A stretch of 63,991 bases of DNA, counting the filler, from a bacterium (GTDB lineage: Bacteria > UBA9089 > CG2-30-40-21 > SBAY01), in assembly GCA_040757115.1 (NCBI GenBank). It is 6 parts of 6 records of this genome, joined end to end, with 100 filler letters (N's around TTAATTAATTAA, not from the genome) between each part and the next. Parts side by side here need not be neighbours in the genome. Positions count along the whole stretch, not along the records: positions 51,237 to 57,890 come from JBFLYA010000207.1; 5 more parts are not named here. One strand, 5' to 3'. Below, piece by piece: positions 30,698 through 57,990 of the stretch. The notes under the pieces were generated by a model. That model searched no databases and was not told where the DNA came from. It worked only from the letters and a program-made list of their open reading frames with translations. The first letter of the stretch is position 1. Each line of letters begins with the position of its first letter. A program made the translations under genes and the position numbers.

Positions 30698-30797
30698 NNN
30701 NNNNNNNNNNNNNNNNNNNNNNNNNNNNNNNNNNNNNNNNNTTAATTAATTAANNNNNNNNNNNNNNNNNNNNNNNNNNNNNNNNNNNNNNNNNNNN

Positions 30798-37514: not shown

Positions 37515-37614
37515 NNNNNNNNNNNNNNNNNNNNNNNNNNNNNNNNNNNNNNNNNNNNTTAATTAATTAANNNNNNNNNNNNNNNNNNNNNNNNNNNNNN
37601 NNNNNNNNNNNNNN

Positions 37615-44226: not shown

Positions 44227-44461
44227 GAAAAATTTTAATATCAAAATTAGAAAATACTGAAAAATAACATCCTGGTATTATACTGCCTATTAGCGGTTTT
44301 TATTTTACTGCATTATAAATTTTTTTCTNNNNNNNNNNNNNNNNNNNNNNNNNNNNNNNNNNNNNNNNNNNNTTAATTAATTAANNNNNNNNNNNNNNNN
44401 NNNNNNNNNNNNNNNNNNNNNNNNNNNNAGCAAGGCGTGGCATTCTAAACCTTAGCCGTTT

Positions 44462-48750: not shown

Positions 48751-48922
48751 ATATTTTCCTTTAGTTGAAATCGGCATCTAACTTACCCAATATGTCGGGT
48801 AGGGATTAGGGTCAGNNNNNNNNNNNNNNNNNNNNNNNNNNNNNNNNNNNNNNNNNNNNNNNNNNNNNNNNNNNNNNNNNNNNNNNNNNNNNNNNNNNNN
48901 NNNNNNNNNNNNNNNGGTATTA

Positions 48923-50977
48923 ATGCAAAGATTATTTTATAAATTATGGAAACGGTATAAATACCTTTTAGGAGTGGGTTTATCTCTGGTTGTTTTAGGA
49001 TTTATTCTGTTTACCTCATTGCCTTTTGAAGACATTTTTAATACCTTTGAAAGAAAAACCCTGGATTATCGCTTCAGGCTCTTATCCGACCCGAAAGAGG
49101 CAAGAAGTAATATTGTGATTATTGATATTGATGAGGAAAGTATCAGGCAAATGGAGGATTTGTATGGAAGATGGCCATGGACCAGAGAGGTGCATAGCGG
49201 ATTAATTAAATATTTAAGCCAGGCAAAGGCAGTTGTCTTTGATGTCCTTTTTACAGAAACAAGTAAGTCTATGGTTGAAAAAGAAGATGTAAACCAGGCA
49301 ATTATGGAAATAGACGAGTTAATCCAAACCAATAAAACAGATAGAATAAAGGAGATAATAAATTCATTCTATCAGGACTATGATAGGATATTAGCTGAAA
49401 GCGCCCGAGAAACAGAAAATGTTTATCTTGCCGATATATTTCAATCCAAAGCAGATGAAGGAGAAGTTGATTATGTTTCTTGTGATTGGATAAATAAATT
49501 TGCGGTGCCACTTGAATTTAACCCTGATTTTAAGGCAATTAAAAGATTTGATGGTGTGACACCACCACTACCTTTACTTTGTAAAGCGGTCAAAGGTGTT
49601 GGGCATATAAATATGATTCCTGACGAGGATGGTCCCGTTCGGAGGGCATATACCTTAATTAATTTTAATAAGCGGTTTTATCCATCCCTATCTTTAGCGG
49701 TAACAATGAATTTGCTTGATGTCCAAAAGATTAAACTTGTTCCGGGGGATGGAGTTTATTTAGATAAAAAGGTTAAAATTCCAATCAATGAAGATGGAAC
49801 AATGTTTATAAATTATAAAGGGGGGATAAAAACATATAAATACTATTCATATTATCTTCTTTTTGCCTCTCATTGTTTAATAGAGGAAAGGATGAAGCCA
49901 ATTATCGAGCCAGAGGTTTTTAAGGATAAGATAATTTTAATTGGTTCTACGGCGGCTGGGTTAATGGACCTGCGGGTAACACCATTTTCTTCTATTTATC
50001 CTGGTGTTGAAATTCATGCCAATATTATTGATAATATCTTAAGCCGTTCTTTCTTGCAAGTTCCGTCTTTTGCGGTAAATCTAATTATTATGATTTTTCT
50101 ATCGGCTCTTATCGGTGTGGTCATACCAAAATTAAAACCATTTTGGGGAGCAATTTTTACATTAGAAATACTCATTATTTATTTATTAGGGGCGATATAT
50201 CTATTTAATTTACACCGTATCTGGATAGAGATATTTCGACCTGGTCTAAATATTGTTATGAGCTATTTTATTATTTTAATATCTCAATATATTATTGTGG
50301 AGAATCTACGAAAAAGAATAAAAGAGGCTTTTCAGCACTTTGTCAATGCCACGGTCGTTGAAGAGATTATTAAGGACCCGGAGAAATTAAAACTTTGGGG
50401 AGAAGAAAAGGAATTAACCGTTCTATTTTCAGACATTCGCGATTTTACCAGCTTATCAGAAAGCCTTCCGCCAAAGGATGTCGTCTTTCTCCTGAATGAA
50501 TACCTTCAGCGGATGACAGAAATTGTCTTTAAATATGATGGAACACTCGACAAATATGTTGGAGATGAAATTATGGCTTTTTATGGTGCACCGTTAGAAG
50601 GGCAAATCGACCATGCAGAAAGAGCCTGTCGCACCGCTATAGATATGATGAATGAGCTTCATAAACTTAATGAAGAACGGATTAAAAAAGGCCAGCCTAC
50701 TTTTAATATCGGCATTGGAATTAATACGGGTAAAATGGTTGTTGGGAATATGGGTTCTGAGTTGAAAAAAGATTATACCATTATTGGAGATAATGTTAAT
50801 TTGGGGGCAAGGTTAGAAGGTATAAATAAAAAATTTCACACCAATATTATTATCAGTGAATTCACCTATCAACAGGTAAAAGATAAAGTAAAAGTGAAGG
50901 AGTTAGGGAAAGAAACTGTCAAAGGAAAACAAAATGCCGTCAAGATATATGAATTATTGGCGCTGAAAGAATTGTAA
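48923..50977 (+). CDS. CHASE2 / class III adenylate-guanylate cyclase
   Basis: IVIIDIDEES, GRWPW.R, PGVEIHA, three TMs, LFSDIRDFT, DKYVGD, GDNVNLGARLE. Confidence 0.93.
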   Translation: MQRLFYKLWKRYKYLLGVGLSLVVLGFILFTSLPFEDIFNTFERKTLDYRFRLLSDPKEARSNIVIIDIDEESIRQMEDLYGRWPWTREVHSGLIKYLSQAKAVVFDVLFTETSKSMVEKEDVNQAIMEIDELIQTNKTDRIKEIINSFYQDYDRILAESARETENVYLADIFQSKADEGEVDYVSCDWINKFAVPLEFNPDFKAIKRFDGVTPPLPLLCKAVKGVGHINMIPDEDGPVRRAYTLINFNKRFYPSLSLAVTMNLLDVQKIKLVPGDGVYLDKKVKIPINEDGTMFINYKGGIKTYKYYSYYLLFASHCLIEERMKPIIEPEVFKDKIILIGSTAAGLMDLRVTPFSSIYPGVEIHANIIDNILSRSFLQVPSFAVNLIIMIFLSALIGVVIPKLKPFWGAIFTLEILIIYLLGAIYLFNLHRIWIEIFRPGLNIVMSYFIILISQYIIVENLRKRIKEAFQHFVNATVVEEIIKDPEKLKLWGEEKELTVLFSDIRDFTSLSESLPPKDVVFLLNEYLQRMTEIVFKYDGTLDKYVGDEIMAFYGAPLEGQIDHAERACRTAIDMMNELHKLNEERIKKGQPTFNIGIGINTGKMVVGNMGSELKKDYTIIGDNVNLGARLEGINKKFHTNIIISEFTYQQVKDKVKVKELGKETVKGKQNAVKIYELLALKEL

Positions 50978-51136: not shown

Positions 51137-51236
51137 NNNNNNNNNNNNNNNNNNNNNNNNNNNNNNNNNNNNNNNNNNNNTTAATTAATTAANNNNNNNN
51201 NNNNNNNNNNNNNNNNNNNNNNNNNNNNNNNNNNNN

Positions 51237-51636
51237 TAATAATCATGAAATCTCTCAGGATGGCGGTAACCCCATCTGGTCACCCAGAGGCGACTTGATT
51301 GCCTTTGTCTGCAAAGGCTGGATATATACCATGAAACCAGATGGAAGCGAGAGGAGGAAGGTGATTGATGGAAATTATATAGGTGATTGGATACCAGATG
51401 GAAAAGCATTTACAGCATCTATATCAGGTGGTACTCATATAGTTGACTTAAATGGGAATGTTGTTAAATATACTGGATTATGTGGACAGTGGTCTCCTGA
51501 TGGTAAAATGATACTTTGTGGATTTGATGTTTATGATTCTATTGATGGTAAAAAGATAGGAGAGCCATTATCAGTAGGAATTCCAAAATCTACAAGCAAA
51601 TATTTCGTCTATAAAAGACCAAATAATATTTGGTAA
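51237..51636 (+). CDS. TolB-like (PD40) beta-propeller protein A, 5' truncated by gap
   Basis: WSPRG, WIPDG, WSPDG repeats; ends YKRPNNIW. Confidence 0.8.
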
Positions 51637-51651
51637 AGGAGGGTAAAAGTC

Positions 51652-52710
51652 ATGAAAAAAATTGCTATTTGTTTGGTAATGTTATGTATATTCAGCAATG
51701 AAGTAAGAGCAGAAGAAATTAATTGGGGGAGTTGCACCACTTATGCACCAATGCCTGTATTGTTCATTCATGGCATTAACGCTAATGCAACCACTTGGGA
51801 TACAGCTACTAAAGAACTGGAGAAATATTTTGGATATAAATGGATGCGGTACGACGGAAAATATATAACTCCTGACCCTCATTTTTACCCTGTTACTTAC
51901 GATGAAAAGAACCCCAACGCCCCGCAGAACAAGGTCGTGAAGCATTATTTAGAGGCGTTTGATTATGGTGGGGAGGATGCGGGTAAGAGTTTTAACCATC
52001 TTGATACATATAGTGATGTTTTAAAAAGACTCATTGAAGGAGATGATAAATCACCTGGTATATTAAAATCTTACTATGGCGATAACTATAATCCTACTAC
52101 TGACAAACTCATTATCGTTGCTCATTCTCAAGGAGGACTAATTGCCAGACATTATATTCAAGAAAAGGATGGCTGGAAACATGTAAAGCGATTGATTACT
52201 ATTGGAACTGCTCATACTGGAAGTTGGCTAGCAGATAAATTGATAAGAAGGACACGCGAGGTGCCTGAATCTGAATTTATATGGATACTTCAAGAAATGG
52301 CTATTCGTGGCCTGGCAAAGATATTAAAGGTAGAGAAGATAGAAGATATAGAAAAAGGTGCAATACAAGACCAACAAACAGAGTTGTATCAGTCTCCCAT
52401 ATCTATACTTGGGCATGCATATAATACTTTCCTTTGGCATCTTAACAATGGTTCAGGATTACGAAATTTACAGGATAATGTGGAAGTTGTATGCATAGTA
52501 GGGAAAATTGGGAAATTATTTTATAAAGATAGTGATGCAATAGTTAGTGGAAATAGTCAAAGAGGAGAAAGTGAAATTCTTCCTGTAAAATACTTTGAGC
52601 CAATCTCTATAATTGATATAAAAGATGGTTTAAAAGGAATGCATACTAATCGCTCCTACGGAGCTGAATTCTTTAAGGATTATCATAGTCTACAAATATA
52701 TCACTCCTAA
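51652..52710 (+). CDS. Secreted alpha/beta hydrolase (lipase/PGAP1-like) A, lacking the C-terminal extension
   Basis: Signal peptide, PVLFIHG, AHSQGG, DSDAIV, KGMH; diverges from copy C at 52638. Confidence 0.8.
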   Translation: MKKIAICLVMLCIFSNEVRAEEINWGSCTTYAPMPVLFIHGINANATTWDTATKELEKYFGYKWMRYDGKYITPDPHFYPVTYDEKNPNAPQNKVVKHYLEAFDYGGEDAGKSFNHLDTYSDVLKRLIEGDDKSPGILKSYYGDNYNPTTDKLIIVAHSQGGLIARHYIQEKDGWKHVKRLITIGTAHTGSWLADKLIRRTREVPESEFIWILQEMAIRGLAKILKVEKIEDIEKGAIQDQQTELYQSPISILGHAYNTFLWHLNNGSGLRNLQDNVEVVCIVGKIGKLFYKDSDAIVSGNSQRGESEILPVKYFEPISIIDIKDGLKGMHTNRSYGAEFFKDYHSLQIYHS

Positions 52711-52810
52711 CGGAGTTTAGAAAATATATTCAGCCCTGTAAGGGCGAGATGTTTATAGCTTTATCGTCTCAACATCAAATTAGCTCCATAGGAGCGATAT
52801 GTTTATTGAG
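52645..52810. repeat. REP-like palindrome cluster ending hydrolase A
   Basis: GCTCCTACGGAGC, CTCCTAACGGAG, GCCCTGTAAGGGC, GCTCCATAGGAGC. Confidence 0.7.
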
Positions 52811-52857
52811 AAAGTTATAAATATTTTCGTGCAAAAGTTTGTTGTCATGAGGTAGGT

Positions 52858-53913
52858 ATGATGATAAGGGTAATAGAAAACTTATGTATTTTAGTTTTGC
52901 TTATTCTTTTAGTAGTAATTATCTTCAAGAAGAAGGCGATAAAAATAATCATTATCAGTGGGATAATCATAGGAGCAATAATAGGTGGTTGTAAATGGTT
53001 AGAATATAAGTTTGGTGCCAGAGAGAGTGATAGGATTTCTTATTGTGCACCGTGTTGGGGACCAAACAACAAGATATTTTTTATTAAACATGTAATGTAT
53101 GGAAATTATTCTCCATTGCTTGGGTCGATAGGATATTACTATAAGAAGAGTGAGATTTATCTTTGTTCTATGAATGCAGATGGGACAGATAAGAAAGAGA
53201 TTGTAATGCTTGAGGATACAAGCAAGAAACCTGATTTTATTCCTGTGCCTGGGGATACAAGCAAAAAAGCTGATTTAATATTTCCTCGCTATCTTGATTA
53301 TTGCTCAAAGAATGGTTTAATTCTCATGTCAGGAGGAGATATTCCCAGTGGTGGCTGGACTAATGGAATATGGATTATTACACCAGATGGAAGTAATCTG
53401 ACAAAGGTATCAAATATAGGGATGCACGCCTCCTGGTCACCCAATGGAAAAAGGATGGTGTATGACGGAGAGAAAGGGATTTGGGTGATGAATATAGATG
53501 GAACTAATAATCATGAAATCTCTCAGGATGGCGGTAACCCCATCTGGTCACCCAGAGGCGACTTGATTGCCTTTGTCTGCAAAGGCTGGATATATACCAT
53601 GAAACCAGATGGAAGCGAGAGGAGGAAGGTGTGTGATAATTATCTAGGCGATTGGTCTCCTGATGGAACAATGCTTATGACAGCGTCACCACGAGGTATT
53701 ATCGACTTAAATGGTAAGAGTGTTAGAGAATTCCCCGTAGAAGAATCTACCAATGGAAAGTGGTCACCTGATGGAAAAATGTTTCTGGGGAAAAGGGACT
53801 TTATTTTATACGATAGTGTGACTGGTAAAAAGATAGGGTATCCATTATCAGTAGGGGTATTAAGATCTGAAGGCAAATATTTCGTCTATAAAAAACCAAA
53901 TAATATTTGGTAA
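52858..53913 (+). CDS. Membrane-anchored TolB-like beta-propeller protein B
   Basis: Two N-terminal hydrophobic segments ending IIGGC; WSPNG/WSPRG/WSPDG repeats. Confidence 0.85.
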   Translation: MMIRVIENLCILVLLILLVVIIFKKKAIKIIIISGIIIGAIIGGCKWLEYKFGARESDRISYCAPCWGPNNKIFFIKHVMYGNYSPLLGSIGYYYKKSEIYLCSMNADGTDKKEIVMLEDTSKKPDFIPVPGDTSKKADLIFPRYLDYCSKNGLILMSGGDIPSGGWTNGIWIITPDGSNLTKVSNIGMHASWSPNGKRMVYDGEKGIWVMNIDGTNNHEISQDGGNPIWSPRGDLIAFVCKGWIYTMKPDGSERRKVCDNYLGDWSPDGTMLMTASPRGIIDLNGKSVREFPVEESTNGKWSPDGKMFLGKRDFILYDSVTGKKIGYPLSVGVLRSEGKYFVYKKPNNIW

Positions 53914-53927
53914 GGAGGGTAAAAGTC

Positions 53928-54530
53928 ATGAAAAAAATTGCTATTTGTGTGGTGATATTGTGTATATTCAGCAATAAAGTAAGAGCAGAAGAAATTAGTT
54001 GGGGGAGTTGCACCACTTATGCACCGATGCCTGTATTATTTATCCATGGCATCAACGCTAATGCAGAAACATGGGATACTGCTACCAAAGAATTGGAGAA
54101 GTATTTTGGGTATAGATGGTTACTGTTTAATCGTTCTGATAAAAAAATAACAGAGGATGAGAAACCAGTTACTGTGGACCGAGATAATCCCAACGCCCCG
54201 CAGAACAAGGTCGTGAAGCATTATTTAGAGGCGTTTGATTATGGTGGGGAGGATGCAGGTAAGAGTTTTAACCATCTTGATACATATAGTGATGTTTTAA
54301 AAAGACTCATTGAAGGAGATGATAAATCACCTGGTATATTAAAATCTTACTATGGCGATAACTATAATCCTACTACTGACAAACTCATTATCGTTGCTCA
54401 TTCTCAAGGAGGACTAATTGCCAGACATTATATTCAAGAAAAGGATGGCTGGAAACATGTAAAGCGATTGATTACTATTGGAACTGCTTTAGGGTCATTG
54501 GATTATAGTTTAGAGGAAATTGTTTTATAG
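53928..54530 (+). pseudogene. Secreted alpha/beta hydrolase B, truncated after LITIGTA
   Basis: Matches copies A and C up to 54488, then unrelated; predicted catalytic Asp/His region lost. Confidence 0.8.
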
Positions 54531-54613
54531 GGTCGGTTTACGAACCAGCGGTTATCAGCTACCAGACAACGCATGCTAAAGCCTGCGGCTACCAACTTAA
54601 GGTGGAAAAGATA

Positions 54614-55654
54614 ATGAAGACAATTGAAAATATATGTATTTTAGTTTTGCTTATTCTTTTAGTAGTAATTATCTTCAAGAAGAAGGCGATAAAAATAATC
54701 ATTATCAGTGGGATAATCATAGGAGCAATAATAGGTGGTTGTAAATGGTTAGAATATAAGTTTGGTGCCAGAGAGAGTGATAGGATTTCTTATTGTGCAC
54801 CGTGTTGGGGACCAAACAACAAGATATTTTTTATTAAACATGTAATGTATGGAAATTATTCTCCATTGCTTGGGTCGATAGGATATTACTATAAGAAGAG
54901 TGAGATTTATCTTTGTTCTATGAATACAGATGGGACAGATAAGAAAGAGATTGTAATGCTTGAGGATACAAGCAAGAAACCTGATTTTATTCCTGTCCCT
55001 GGGGATACAAGCAAAAAAGCTGATTTAATATTTCCTCGTTATCTTGATTATTGCTCAAAGAATGGTTTAATTCTCATGTCAGGAGGAGCTATTCCCAGTG
55101 GTGGCTGGACTAATGGAATATGGATTATTACACCAGATGGAAGTAATCTGACAAAGGTATCAAATATAGGGATGCACGCCTCCTGGTCACCCAATGGAAA
55201 AAGGATAGTGTATGACGGAGAGAAAGGGATTTGGGTGATGAATATAGATGGAACTAATAATCATGAAATCTCTCAGGATGGCGGTAACCCCATCTGGTCA
55301 CCCAGAGGCGACTTGATTGCCTTTACCTGTAAAGGCTGGATTTGGGTGATGAAACCTGATGGGAGTGAGAGGAGGATGGTACATAAAGGAATGTATCTTT
55401 TTGATTGGATACCTGATGGAAACGGAATTATTAAAGATGGAGCACCTGGAACTGGATGGGGTATTTTTGATATAAATGGGAATGTGATAAAAAGGTTAAA
55501 ATGGGGAGGATATGTTTCATCAGATGGCAAGTTAATATTATCTCTTGATTTTACTGTGTTTGATATTAATAAAGAGGTAGAAATAGAACCTTTCGCTGAT
55601 ATTAAACAAACTGAAAAACATTTTGTATATAAAAAACCAAATAACATTTGGTAA
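54614..55654 (+). CDS. Membrane-anchored TolB-like beta-propeller protein C
   Basis: About 690 bp nearly identical to B, divergent C-terminal third. Confidence 0.85.
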   Translation: MKTIENICILVLLILLVVIIFKKKAIKIIIISGIIIGAIIGGCKWLEYKFGARESDRISYCAPCWGPNNKIFFIKHVMYGNYSPLLGSIGYYYKKSEIYLCSMNTDGTDKKEIVMLEDTSKKPDFIPVPGDTSKKADLIFPRYLDYCSKNGLILMSGGAIPSGGWTNGIWIITPDGSNLTKVSNIGMHASWSPNGKRIVYDGEKGIWVMNIDGTNNHEISQDGGNPIWSPRGDLIAFTCKGWIWVMKPDGSERRMVHKGMYLFDWIPDGNGIIKDGAPGTGWGIFDINGNVIKRLKWGGYVSSDGKLILSLDFTVFDINKEVEIEPFADIKQTEKHFVYKKPNNIW

Positions 55655-55671
55655 AAAGGGGGTATATCATC

Positions 55672-57890
55672 ATGAAAAGGATAATCTTATGTATTTTATT
55701 ATTGCTTTGTGGATGGAGCAGTAAAGTAAGTAGTGAGGAACTTACCTGGGGTAGTTGTACTACTTACGCACCTATGCCTGTATTGTTTATCCACGGGATT
55801 AACTCTAATTGTAAAACATGGGATACTGCTATTCCTGAGTTAGAGAAGTATTTCCAGTATAGACAGGAAAGATTTAATGAACCTAATTACTTTATTTCTC
55901 CTTTTCACCCCACTCGAAAAGGCGTCACCTACTTCAAAGATGAGAAAACCAATTACGAATCCCCCGCCAAGCTCTATTTAGAGGCGTTTGATTATGGTGG
56001 GGAGGATGCAGGTAAGAGTTTTAACCATCTTGATACATATAGTGATGTTTTAAAAAGACTCATTGAAGGAGATGATAAATCACCTGGTATATTAAAATCT
56101 TACTATGGCGATAACTATAATCCTACTACTGACAAACTCATTATCGTTGCTCATTCTCAAGGAGGACTAATTGCCAGACATTATATTCAAGAAAAGGATG
56201 GCTGGAAACATGTAAAGCGATTGATTACTATTGGAACTGCTCATACTGGAAGTTGGCTAGCAGATAAATTGATAAGAAGGACACGCGAGGTGCCTGAATC
56301 TGAATTTATATGGATACTTCAAGAAATGGCTATTCGTGGCCTGGCAAAGATATTAAAGGTAGAGAAGATAGAAGATATAGAAAAAGGTGCAATACAAGAC
56401 CAACAAACAGAGTTGTATCAGTCTCCCATATCTATACTTGGGCATGCATATAATACTTTCCTTTGGCATCTTAACAATGGTTCAGGATTACGAAATTTAC
56501 AGGATAATGTGGAAGTTGTATGCATAGTAGGGAAAATTGGGAAATTATTTTATAAAGATAGTGATGCAATAGTTAGTGGAAATAGTCAAAGAGGAGAAAG
56601 TGAAATTCTTCCTGTAAAATACTTTGAGCCAATCTCTATAATTGATATAAAAGATGGTTTAAAAGGATTTCATGGTAACCAAACTAATCAATGGGATAAA
56701 ATCCGCCAATCCCTTGACGGTATTCCCGATAAAGGGACAAAGACTTATGATACGCCTTGTGTAACACTTGGGACATCTACCGTTACGCCAGGCACTTATA
56801 GTTTATACTACCTTGGCTCAAGCGATAATTTCTATATCACTGGCAAGATTCAGGATTACATCCCCGCTTCTTGCAGTATTACGGTAGAGATAGACTCTGA
56901 AGGCAATTATGCCTCAGATAAAGATGGGCAAATAAAAGAGCGACAGGATTTAATCCAGCCAATTGATATGAATACTGAATCTCAGGAGTTGCCACAAAAG
57001 CCGGCAAAACTCAATGCCAGCTTTAACTTCCATCCCACTAACTTACTTACCCAGGGCAGTCACACCTTCCGGGTGACGATAAAAAACCCTGCCGGGCTTA
57101 TCGGCACTTCGACGACAAAGGAAGGCTTTGACTGGATACCGTTTATGATTGTGGGATTACCCGTAGTTGAAGTGCCGATTCAGAAGTCTGCCTCGCCGGC
57201 GACTCCTATTGCTGGCGGGTTTCAGGCGGCTTCATCCTTGTTTTTCTGGGATAATCAAAATAATTACTGGGAGCGATGGATTAATTCTAATCTACGCGTG
57301 GATTCGGATAATATCATCCGCTATAATGCCGGCACCTCTAACCTCGATAACCCTAACCTCCGACATCGTGTCTATCTGGAAAGTAGAATCTATCCGGCTG
57401 GCTCAATATATCCTAAAGCCTCTTGCGTCAATAAAAAGGAGACTCAGGCGATTACCTATACCTACGCCTCGCCACCTTTTAAACTACTCCCATTTACTAA
57501 AGCCGATAACACGGTAGTATATCGGCCTGATGTAGATGACAACGGCACAATTACCTATCCAGAAGATATGGTTACCTTTACTAATAACGAGGTTATCTTC
57601 ACCCCAAAGAAAGATGCCTTACCCAATCTTAATTTTGGACCAATCATCCCGGGTAATCCGATGTATACTTACCCACTACACATAATTATCCCACCAGAAT
57701 ATCAAGGTGTTTCTTCTCATGAGCTGGATATTTATATCAATCAGGTCGGAGGATTGTATGCCTTAGAATCGCTACAGAAGGCGTTCGATTATAGTCAGGC
57801 TTTATCCAGCCAACAGGGTTTTAACCCCACGATAAATATTGCCTGGGCACAAAATGCAGATTTAACCAATGACGGGATTACAGGGTTTGG
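55672..57890 (+). CDS. Secreted alpha/beta hydrolase C with long C-terminal extension (3' partial)
   Basis: Signal peptide, AHSQGG, DSD, KGFH, then about 400 aa of further sequence running into the gap. Confidence 0.85.
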
Positions 57891-57990
57891 NNNNNNNNNN
57901 NNNNNNNNNNNNNNNNNNNNNNNNNNNNNNNNNNTTAATTAATTAANNNNNNNNNNNNNNNNNNNNNNNNNNNNNNNNNNNNNNNNNNNN

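Follow-up and report, generated by a model that had tools for sequence, protein, structure and literature searches.

A tandem array of β-propeller and lipase-like gene pairs with co-varying segments across the gene junction

Here we describe a tandem array of paired genes, each pair encoding a β-propeller protein and a secreted lipase-like hydrolase, in the draft genome of an uncultured groundwater bacterium (NCBI GenBank assembly GCA_040757115.1, referred to below as G000; 462 contigs totalling 4.32 Mb, with a median length of 5.8 kb; completeness 99.87%, contamination 1.41%). The array was found at positions 51237–57890 of a window of 63,991 nucleotides, the whole stretch of DNA that was analysed, and these positions make up one whole contig of 6,654 bp (G000:C121). 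Neighbouring copies share a near-identical frame, made up of propeller blades 1–4 and the body of the hydrolase, and the cassette that spans the junction of the two genes is diverse.

Gene content of the array

All genes of the contig lie on the plus strand. Propeller A (51237–51636) comprises only its C-terminal 132–133 codons, with a conserved core (IWSPRGDLIAFVCKGWIYTMKPDGSERR), variable blades 5–6 and the tail FVYKRPNNIW. It is followed by hydrolase A (51652–52710, 352 amino acids), which has a signal-peptide-like N terminus and a PGAP1/lipase-like α/β-hydrolase domain with the serine in AHSQGG, the aspartate in DSDAIV and the histidine in GMH. Hydrolase A has no C-terminal extension, and its final ~20 codons and stop codon are supplied by a dispersed element of ~198 bp (52650–52847) that resembles repetitive extragenic palindromic (REP) sequences or miniature inverted-repeat transposable elements (MITEs) and carries four short GC hairpins. 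Propeller B (52858–53913, 351 amino acids) is intact, with two N-terminal hydrophobic helices ahead of a six-bladed PD40 propeller. Hydrolase B (53928–54530) is a remnant of 200 amino acids, counted from the ATG at 53928, whose homology to hydrolases A and C stops at 54488 after the motif TIGTA; there it joins a native 113-bp spacer (54489–54601) upstream of propeller C. Propeller C (54602–55654) is intact by its open reading frame (ORF) and structural model, and measures 350 amino acids from a GTG or 346 from the ATG at 54614. Hydrolase C (55669–57890) is represented by its first 740 amino acids, comprising a signal peptide, the catalytic domain (S162, D298 and H334) and the start of a long extension, and is open at the contig end. 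The original prediction, made from the sequence of this stretch, described three consecutive propeller–hydrolase pairs; the ORFs match that description, with the qualification that the contig start cuts propeller A, the contig end cuts hydrolase C and hydrolase B is a remnant. Inspection of the ORFs also confirmed that, within this contig, the long C-terminal extension is limited to copy C.

Constant blocks bracket a variable gene junction

Exact comparison of the copies located the boundaries between constant and variable DNA. Propeller B at 52883–53574 matches propeller C at 54633–55324 over 692 bp with five mismatches (53176, 53247, 53289, 53339 and 53457), and identity collapses from 53575 onward. 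Hydrolase A at 51946–52638 matches hydrolase C at 55975–56667 over 693 bp with a single mismatch, at 51981, and hydrolase B at 54222–54488 is identical to hydrolase C over 267 bp. These measurements agree with the earlier counts of about five differences over about 690 bp for the propellers and one difference over 693 bp for the hydrolases.

Between the constant blocks, with near-identical DNA on either side, lies a variable block of ~650 bp, close to the ~600 bp first estimated, that holds the variable parts of both partners and spans the gene junction. Its extent is 53575–54221 in cassette B and 55325–55974 in cassette C; in cassette A it runs from 51307 to 51945 when measured against C and from 51364 to 51912 when measured against B. 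Identity among copies within the block is 45–70% in 60-bp bins. The block encodes the last third of the propeller (blades 5–6 and the tail), its stop codon, the ribosome-binding site (RBS), the hydrolase signal peptide, the first strand and helix of the hydrolase and a variable loop. This loop, flanked by ELEKYF and YLEAFD, is different in each hydrolase copy, as had been proposed, and spans 38–40 amino acids (25–40 in the original prediction). All three propellers reconverge on FVYK[KR]PNNIW, as described before for B and C, and this reconvergence belongs to a conserved stretch of ~240 bp inside the block that codes for FVYKKPNNIW, the signal peptide and WGSCTTYAPMPVLFIHGIN..ELEKYF. The block thus consists of two variable islands, a propeller 'tail' and a hydrolase 'loop', separated by conserved DNA.

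The ends of the apparent conversion tracts vary with the pair of copies compared: A equals B up to 51363, and A diverges from C from 51307. A diversity-generating retroelement (DGR)-type or site-specific mechanism was considered for the variable block and rejected, as the cassettes differ by indels and throughout their length rather than at templated positions. No recombinase or reverse transcriptase was found among the ORFs of contig C121 or of two further array-bearing contigs of the same genome, C131 and C174.

Tail and loop co-vary across homologous loci

We cut aligned pairs from homologous loci into four segments, namely the propeller N-terminal part, the tail, the loop and the hydrolase body (from YLEAFDYGG to RLITIGTA), and compared their p-distances by Mantel tests. 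The tests used 16–17 pairs, and were repeated on 14 pairs after thinning to a single pair for each tandem frame group; the results hold in both. G010_353 was left out as too divergent, and G000_131a (incomplete tail) and G008_354 (cut body) were left out where the affected segment was needed. Tail and loop distances were correlated (r 0.48–0.53, p 2e-4), as were those of the propeller N-terminal part and the hydrolase body (r 0.63–0.68, p 2e-4), with p-values that overstate independence because the pairs are few and related. Neither variable part followed the constant part beside it: the loop was uncorrelated with the hydrolase body (r −0.01 to 0.03, not significant) and the propeller N-terminal part with the tail (r −0.09 to −0.15, not significant).

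Nearest-neighbour comparison gave a corresponding picture, with the tail-nearest neighbour of a pair also being its loop-nearest neighbour in 9 of 17 pairs (1.07 expected by permutation). When pairs were sorted post hoc by sequence motifs, tail and loop classes agreed in 18 of 18 pairs from three genera, with one outlier pair carrying neither motif. Class 1 (8 pairs) combines an APQNKVVKHY loop with a tail lacking [FL][ADG][DEN][IV], and class 2 (10 pairs) an SPA[KR]LYLE loop with a tail that carries it. No recombinant between tail and loop classes was seen among the pairs compared, although the ~240-bp conserved stretch between the two islands would allow crossovers. Loop types also persist across species: the loop of pair 131a is 97% identical to that of G008_405 despite their different hydrolase bodies.

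The cassette thus assorts as a unit, independently of a frame that is itself unit-like, which supports cassette exchange. On these alignments, the pattern is what patch-like gene conversion or a double crossover within the constant blocks would give. The original prediction that both variable parts can be exchanged together is consistent with the data on each side: tail and loop co-vary, neither co-varies with its adjacent constant part, and the flanks co-vary with each other across the cassette. The predicted co-variation therefore extends over homologous loci, and free reassortment of the classes was not seen.

Predicted folds and export of the two proteins

Pfam scans of the propellers matched only PD40, above its cut-off for propeller B, and DPPIV_N, below its own (19.3 and 20.4 bits against 22). 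An AlphaFold2 model of propeller C (predicted local distance difference test (pLDDT) 86.5; predicted template modelling score (pTM) 0.81) places two N-terminal helices over residues 2–50, followed by six blades, and compares best with structures in the PDB that include TolB (7mx5 and 2hqs, E about 1e-9) and an S9 carboxypeptidase propeller. A sequence search of the PDB with the propeller gave no matches. The TolB equivalog model TIGR02800 scored 30.2 bits against a cut-off of 343, and PF04052 was not matched. The family match and the model together support the β-propeller assignment made earlier and identify the propellers as PD40/TolB-like and six-bladed, lacking the TolB N-terminal domain. 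Blades 5–6 (about residues 255–335), which form the variable tail, are confidently folded in the model (pLDDT 84–96), and the 11 C-terminal residues (336–346) are unstructured, the last 10 codons having a pLDDT of 57–62. The motif FVYK[KR]PNNIW at this end (51607–51636, 53884–53913 and 55625–55654) is kept across three genera, with the hydrolase RBS directly after the stop codon.

Hydrolases A, B and C match PF07819 (PGAP1) with scores of 38.4, 34.3 and 35.5 bits (cut-off 24.3), and the Palm_thioest (palmitoyl-thioesterase) profile likewise exceeds its threshold. Hydrolases A and C share an aligned Ser–Asp–His set (AHSQGG, DSDAIV and G[MF]H) and are predicted to have a complete catalytic triad; hydrolase B, which ends beyond the nucleophile region, keeps only the Ser and is missing the catalytic Asp and His. 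Hydrolase A diverges from C at 52639–52650, one codon before or after the catalytic His, where the dispersed repeat starts. An AlphaFold2 model of hydrolase A (pLDDT 74.8, pTM 0.77) was compared with the PDB using Foldseek, which returned 422 matches at E ≤0.001, mostly lipases; the best was BlEst2 (6wpx, E 2e-8, TMq 0.49), and others were lipases of family I.5, Geobacillus, Staphylococcus and Proteus, as well as the Acinetobacter LipA:LipB complex (9g8u). A sequence search of the PDB found only nucleophile-elbow matches (6wpx at 1.4e-5). Profile and model thus support PGAP1/lipase-like α/β-hydrolases with a predicted fold near that of solved lipases, in agreement with the secreted lipase first proposed. 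The variable loop (residues 63–96) is the sole long stretch of the hydrolase A model with a pLDDT below 50, which is weakly consistent with a segment that would become ordered on a partner.

Both proteins appear to be exported through N-terminal signals, as judged by eye and from the N-terminal helices of the models. Propellers B and C have two hydrophobic N-terminal segments and many relatives have an apparent cleavable signal peptide instead, so that the export of the propeller stands as predicted and its membrane anchoring would at best apply to copies B and C.

The long extension of the hydrolases varies in make-up. An intact paralogue on C131 has 1,109 amino acids, comprising the catalytic domain, about 590 further residues and a C-terminal LolA-like domain; the ~590-residue middle gave no family match and no usable match in the ESM Atlas. 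In a related genus, hydrolase extensions end in a sub-threshold sorting domain of the type IX secretion system (T9SS). A protein of 2,727 amino acids from that genus (contig G007:C37; locus L105, 222–8405, minus strand) combines a lipase-like N-terminal domain with right-handed β-helix/NosD repeats, PD40 repeats and a T9SS-like C-terminal domain, and is preceded by its own propeller gene. It was considered as a fused form of the pair and rejected, its PD40 part showing only generic repeat similarity to propeller C. A scan of all of G000 for the T9SS type-A sorting domain gave 47 matches, most of which sit at an end of an ORF of 1,500–4,300 amino acids, which places the hydrolases within a large secretome of giant proteins; SprA_N gave only a sub-threshold match in this genome (G000:C435).

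A LolA-like C-terminal domain of ~200 amino acids (ending ..NTGIPDSEFEP) closes otherwise unrelated secreted proteins, namely Ig-like repeat proteins and the full-length hydrolases (G000:C174:1–1698; G000:C131:5369–5707; L105, 13344–14345, minus strand; L106, 995–3070). This domain is a possible sorting or anchoring module specific to the lineage.

Extent, origin and distribution of the array

Arrays of this kind are also present on contigs C131 (6,402 bp) and C174 (5,321 bp) of G000. An overlap of 8 nucleotides links the end of C174 to the start of C131, and the propeller joined in this way matches an intact gene of a sister species; C131 ends in the N terminus of a further propeller and C121 starts in a propeller tail. 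The likely locus is C174–C131–(gap)–C121, about 19 kb with six pairs. Its six hydrolase copies comprise two of full length (131b and C), one bare catalytic domain (A) and three without the catalytic His (174a, 131a and B), and all seven propeller genes or fragments in the genome are stop-free. The 113-bp spacer downstream of the hydrolase B remnant likewise precedes another propeller gene on C131, to which the spacer and the start of propeller C (54488–54783) are 98.3% identical over 296 bp (G000:C131:6107–6402). Arrays with truncated hydrolases also occur in a second genome of the genus (G008, contigs C145 and C405). Repeated partial duplications have multiplied a lineage-restricted two-gene module into a tandem array. 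Because the duplication units end within the hydrolase gene, the resulting order is (propeller–truncated hydrolase)n–propeller–full-length hydrolase.

The ~198-bp repeat stands in place of the 3′ part of hydrolase A and the native region upstream of propeller B. Further copies lie on 12 other G000 contigs (C13, C311, C278, C133, C202, C265, C73, C200, C2, C453, C411 and C422), at 95–100% identity and in both orientations; GCTCC-TAC-GGAGC is an example of its hairpins. Contig C121 had no Rfam matches at E ≤0.1, and a promoter scan of the contig found no signal (23 sites against 25.3 expected), the terminator-like matches being the repeat hairpins.

The family is narrowly distributed. Of 233 propeller matches among 5.8 billion sequences, 19 reached E ≤1.7e-30, the others being generic TolB-like proteins; seven hydrolases were found, of 407–1,295 amino acids, and a set of 1.84 billion sequences gave nine representatives below 1e-30. 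In the Joint Genome Institute (JGI) metagenomes, where the hydrolase alignment search returned 17 loci, there was one distant member (L115). A scan of genome contigs with the propeller alignment found nothing further; its patterns were not specific enough, with TolB-like sequence in 593 of the 600 candidates, and all 80 retained loci were ordinary TolB. Among 25 species genomes of the organism's phylum, a small one, the propeller is present in four, all of one family, and two further genomes of that family contain neither the propeller nor the hydrolase gene. At 19 of 19 junctions compiled from these four genomes, and at the distant metagenome locus as well (20 of 20), the propeller gene immediately precedes the hydrolase gene, 3–20 bp upstream of it.

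In the related genus (G007), a single pair sits in a housekeeping setting between truB and ribF. Another G007 locus begins with the same upstream gene as G000:C174, which indicates that the array locus is orthologous and was expanded in G000. One of six G000 cassettes has a match of at least 85% DNA identity in G008 (eight contigs compared). A full-text literature search found no paper describing a β-propeller partner of a secreted lipase, and in the few draft genomes that carry it, the propeller and lipase family has so far been annotated as no more than 'hypothetical protein'.

An independent view of the array came from X1, a groundwater metagenome run that is probably the source sample (87% of sampled words) and whose assembled contigs we compared with C121. 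These independently built contigs reproduce five variable stretches with 0 differences, at depths of 299–335, and the shared blocks have depths of 710 (propeller block) and 847 (three-way hydrolase block). The depths fit 1:2:3 copies only roughly, contig depths not being copy numbers. Every block boundary is also a break between X1 contigs, no single one of which covers the whole array; the stretches that these contigs leave uncovered, together with a skip at 51368–51610, most likely reflect the paralogous copy on C131 and are uninformative on structure. One X1 contig over 56212–57237 differs from hydrolase C at 56298 and 56431, positions at which A equals C; these differences hint at a further copy or a strain variant.

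Contig C121 is bounded in the window by artificial linkers at 51137–51236 (N44-TTAATTAATTAA-N44) and 57891–57990. Linkers of this form occur five times (30698–30797, 37515–37614, 44329–44428 and these two), and two scaffold gaps of 100 N lie at 2164–2263 and 48816–48915. The window is therefore a chain of separate joined contigs in which gene neighbourhood across linkers or gaps carries no meaning, and the genes beside 51237–57890 are not its genomic neighbours. On another of these contigs, an ORF of 684 amino acids (48923–50977, plus strand) looks by eye like a membrane sensor domain joined to a class III nucleotide cyclase.

Interpretation

The reading that we tentatively prefer, and to which we would give a little less than an even chance, is that the propeller is a cognate periplasmic partner of its lipase, acting as a holdase, inhibitor or escort; its binding, location and purpose are what we infer from the pattern above. 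Under this proposal the frames would be homogenised by gene conversion, and the cassette would encode both halves of a cognate contact in which propeller blades 5–6 dock the variable loop of their own lipase in the periplasm. Each propeller would hold, inhibit or escort only the enzyme of its own copy, up to the point at which that enzyme is handed to an outer-membrane or surface export route, with a functional logic like that of the membrane-tethered lipase foldase Lif, or of Tli, which neutralises and activates Tle. Co-diversification would then prevent cross-talk between paralogous pairs.

Several points weigh against a cognate periplasmic partner. The proposed contact between propeller and loop is read from co-variation, which could stem from tight linkage alone, tail and loop being about 240 bp apart. 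One complex prediction, of hydrolase C residues 22–356 with propeller C residues 50–346, scored 0.07 and 0.00 against a mark of 0.32 and counts neither way on binding. In the canonical α/β-hydrolase fold, the connection between helix A and strand 4 is distant from the active site. Placed in this connection by analogy with the canonical fold, in a part where the model is of low confidence, the loop is unlikely to be a simple active-site plug. Membrane anchoring does not appear to be conserved among the propellers. The order of the array rests on a short-read draft assembly of 462 contigs. Finally, three of six G000 hydrolases lack the catalytic His and all propellers are intact, which a pure chaperone model does not predict and an immunity repertoire fits better.

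Part of this evidence could be explained with no physical coupling at all: secreted-esterase paralogues would be expanding together with a co-transcribed general propeller, conversion would homogenise their similar parts, and the islands would be tolerant, fast-evolving segments that co-vary through their 240-bp proximity. Near-identical frames around islands of 45–70% identity are typical of concerted evolution with conversion tracts ending at divergent sequence; the tract ends differ between copy pairs, the low-confidence loop is probably flexible, the Mantel r reaches only about 0.5 and, in 8 of 17 pairs, tail and loop point to different nearest neighbours. Yet the loop shows a correlation of about 0 with the abutting body and follows the farther tail across conserved DNA that is competent for recombination, the classes of the two islands agree in every classified pair across three genera, the same loop type is found on different bodies in different species, and blades 5–6 are well folded rather than a loose loop. 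We regard the uncoupled explanation as somewhat unlikely. The array could also be a product of assembly, in which strain alleles of one or two loci were strung into a false tandem or repeat blocks were misphased. The contig is short with both ends within repeated sequence, near-exact repeats of 693 bp exceed the usual k-mer and often the insert size, and the draft state of G000, the X1 contigs that break at each block boundary and a depth comparison with no single-copy baseline would all allow it. Two distinct hydrolase-to-propeller junctions (52639–52883 and 54488–54622), however, are possible only in a tandem arrangement, truncated hydrolases between propellers recur on C131 and C174, in G008 (C145 and C405) and in G007:C37, and the five variable stretches have similar X1 contig depths; an assembly artefact is accordingly very unlikely.

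The original prediction favoured a polymorphic effector–immunity system of the kind associated with type VI secretion systems (T6SS) or contact-dependent inhibition (CDI), and in that form it was not supported. TssC (PF05943) and Hcp (PF05638) had no matches in G000, whose completeness is given above, and were matched in a control genome. No Tle family scored above its cut-off, the nearest being Tle3 (PF24322) at 16.9 bits against 27 for hydrolase B alone, with none for A or C, and Pfam scans of the hydrolases found no two-partner secretion (TPS), Rhs, LXG or similar domains. Moreover, it is the catalytic domain that stays constant and a peripheral loop that varies, and the partner gene is upstream rather than downstream. 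A broader version would have the secreted lipase as an antibacterial toxin, the exported propeller as its cognate immunity protein and the array as an immunity repertoire against the lipases of kin, with cassette exchange creating new specificities. The stop-free propellers (7 of 7) beside hydrolases of which three of six lack the catalytic His and one the extension resemble orphan immunity genes beside toxin remnants. Within the cassette the variable portions of the two proteins are matched, two species of the same genus differ strongly in how many copies and which cassettes they carry, and a preprint (bioRxiv 10.1101/2023.03.28.534661) mentions a predicted β-propeller immunity protein, PefE. 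Besides the negatives just given, this version has to contend with a protein family that is restricted to a single bacterial family and seems to be inherited vertically (the upstream gene shared by G000 and G007; the truB–ribF pair), and with enzymes that are large secretome proteins like the 47 other G000 ORFs bearing such C-terminal domains; we judge it unlikely. An improbable form of the same idea is a T6SS-independent polymorphic lipase toxin of an uncultured groundwater phylum, released by Sec and outer-membrane export, in which the cassette would be a lock-and-key interface and the intact propellers beside decayed lipases an immunity repertoire. One gene-conversion patch would then install a new specificity that is already matched.

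If the cassette is a matched interface, the array would be a natural library of cognate propeller–lipase pairs on a near-constant scaffold, well suited for asking how binding specificity is written into sequence and how paralogues stay insulated from one another. It would, further, be a case of two genes diversified by a single recombination patch over their junction, and would assign a role to the propeller and lipase family. If the array reflects only the concerted evolution of a paralogue family, it would be a clean example of modest interest.

Comparison with known systems

The propellers resemble TolB of the Tol–Pal system in being six-bladed PD40 propellers of a presumably periplasmic protein, and differ from it in lacking the TolB N-terminal domain and the Tol–Pal context and in their TIGR02800 score, far below that of the equivalog. 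Prolyl-oligopeptidase and DPP-IV enzymes of family S9 likewise combine a β-propeller with an α/β-hydrolase domain, and the propellers here give weak DPPIV_N matches. In S9/DPP-IV enzymes, the propeller gates the active site. Here the two domains are separate polypeptides, the hydrolase is lipase/PGAP1-like rather than Peptidase_S9, and DPPIV_N stays below its cut-off.

The polymorphic toxin loci of CDI and Rhs type with displaced 'orphan' toxin–immunity modules (Zhang et al. 2012, PMC3482391) share with this array near-identical DNA that brackets divergent cassettes, cassettes that carry matched parts of two adjacent genes, and tandem truncated copies. In those loci, it is a C-terminal toxin domain and a downstream immunity gene that vary; in the present array the variation covers the 3′ third of the upstream gene and the 5′ third of the downstream enzyme, with no variable C-terminal toxin, and the remnants pile up upstream of the intact copy. 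The Tle–Tli pairs of the T6SS are alike in that a GxSxG lipase-like enzyme adjoins an exported cognate protein and immunity genes are often multiplied. The Tli immunity protein of Enterobacter cloacae also activates its Tle lipase, according to a preprint (bioRxiv 10.1101/2023.03.28.534661). The present hydrolases differ from Tle proteins by their signal peptides, a genome in which no T6SS sheath or Hcp was found, the lack of a Tle match above the cut-off and the location of their variation in a peripheral loop.

Similar in logic to the proposed partnership are the lipase foldases (LipA with LipH (PMC13381987)/Lif/LipB in Pseudomonas, Burkholderia and Acinetobacter), in which a Sec-exported lipase has a co-transcribed, dedicated and often membrane-tethered periplasmic partner that acts on no lipase but its own, before outer-membrane export. 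Unlike Lif, the partner here is a β-propeller and not the helical Lif fold, and no Lif family was matched in the Pfam scans; its gene stands upstream of the lipase gene, and the module is present in multiple copies with exchangeable cassettes.

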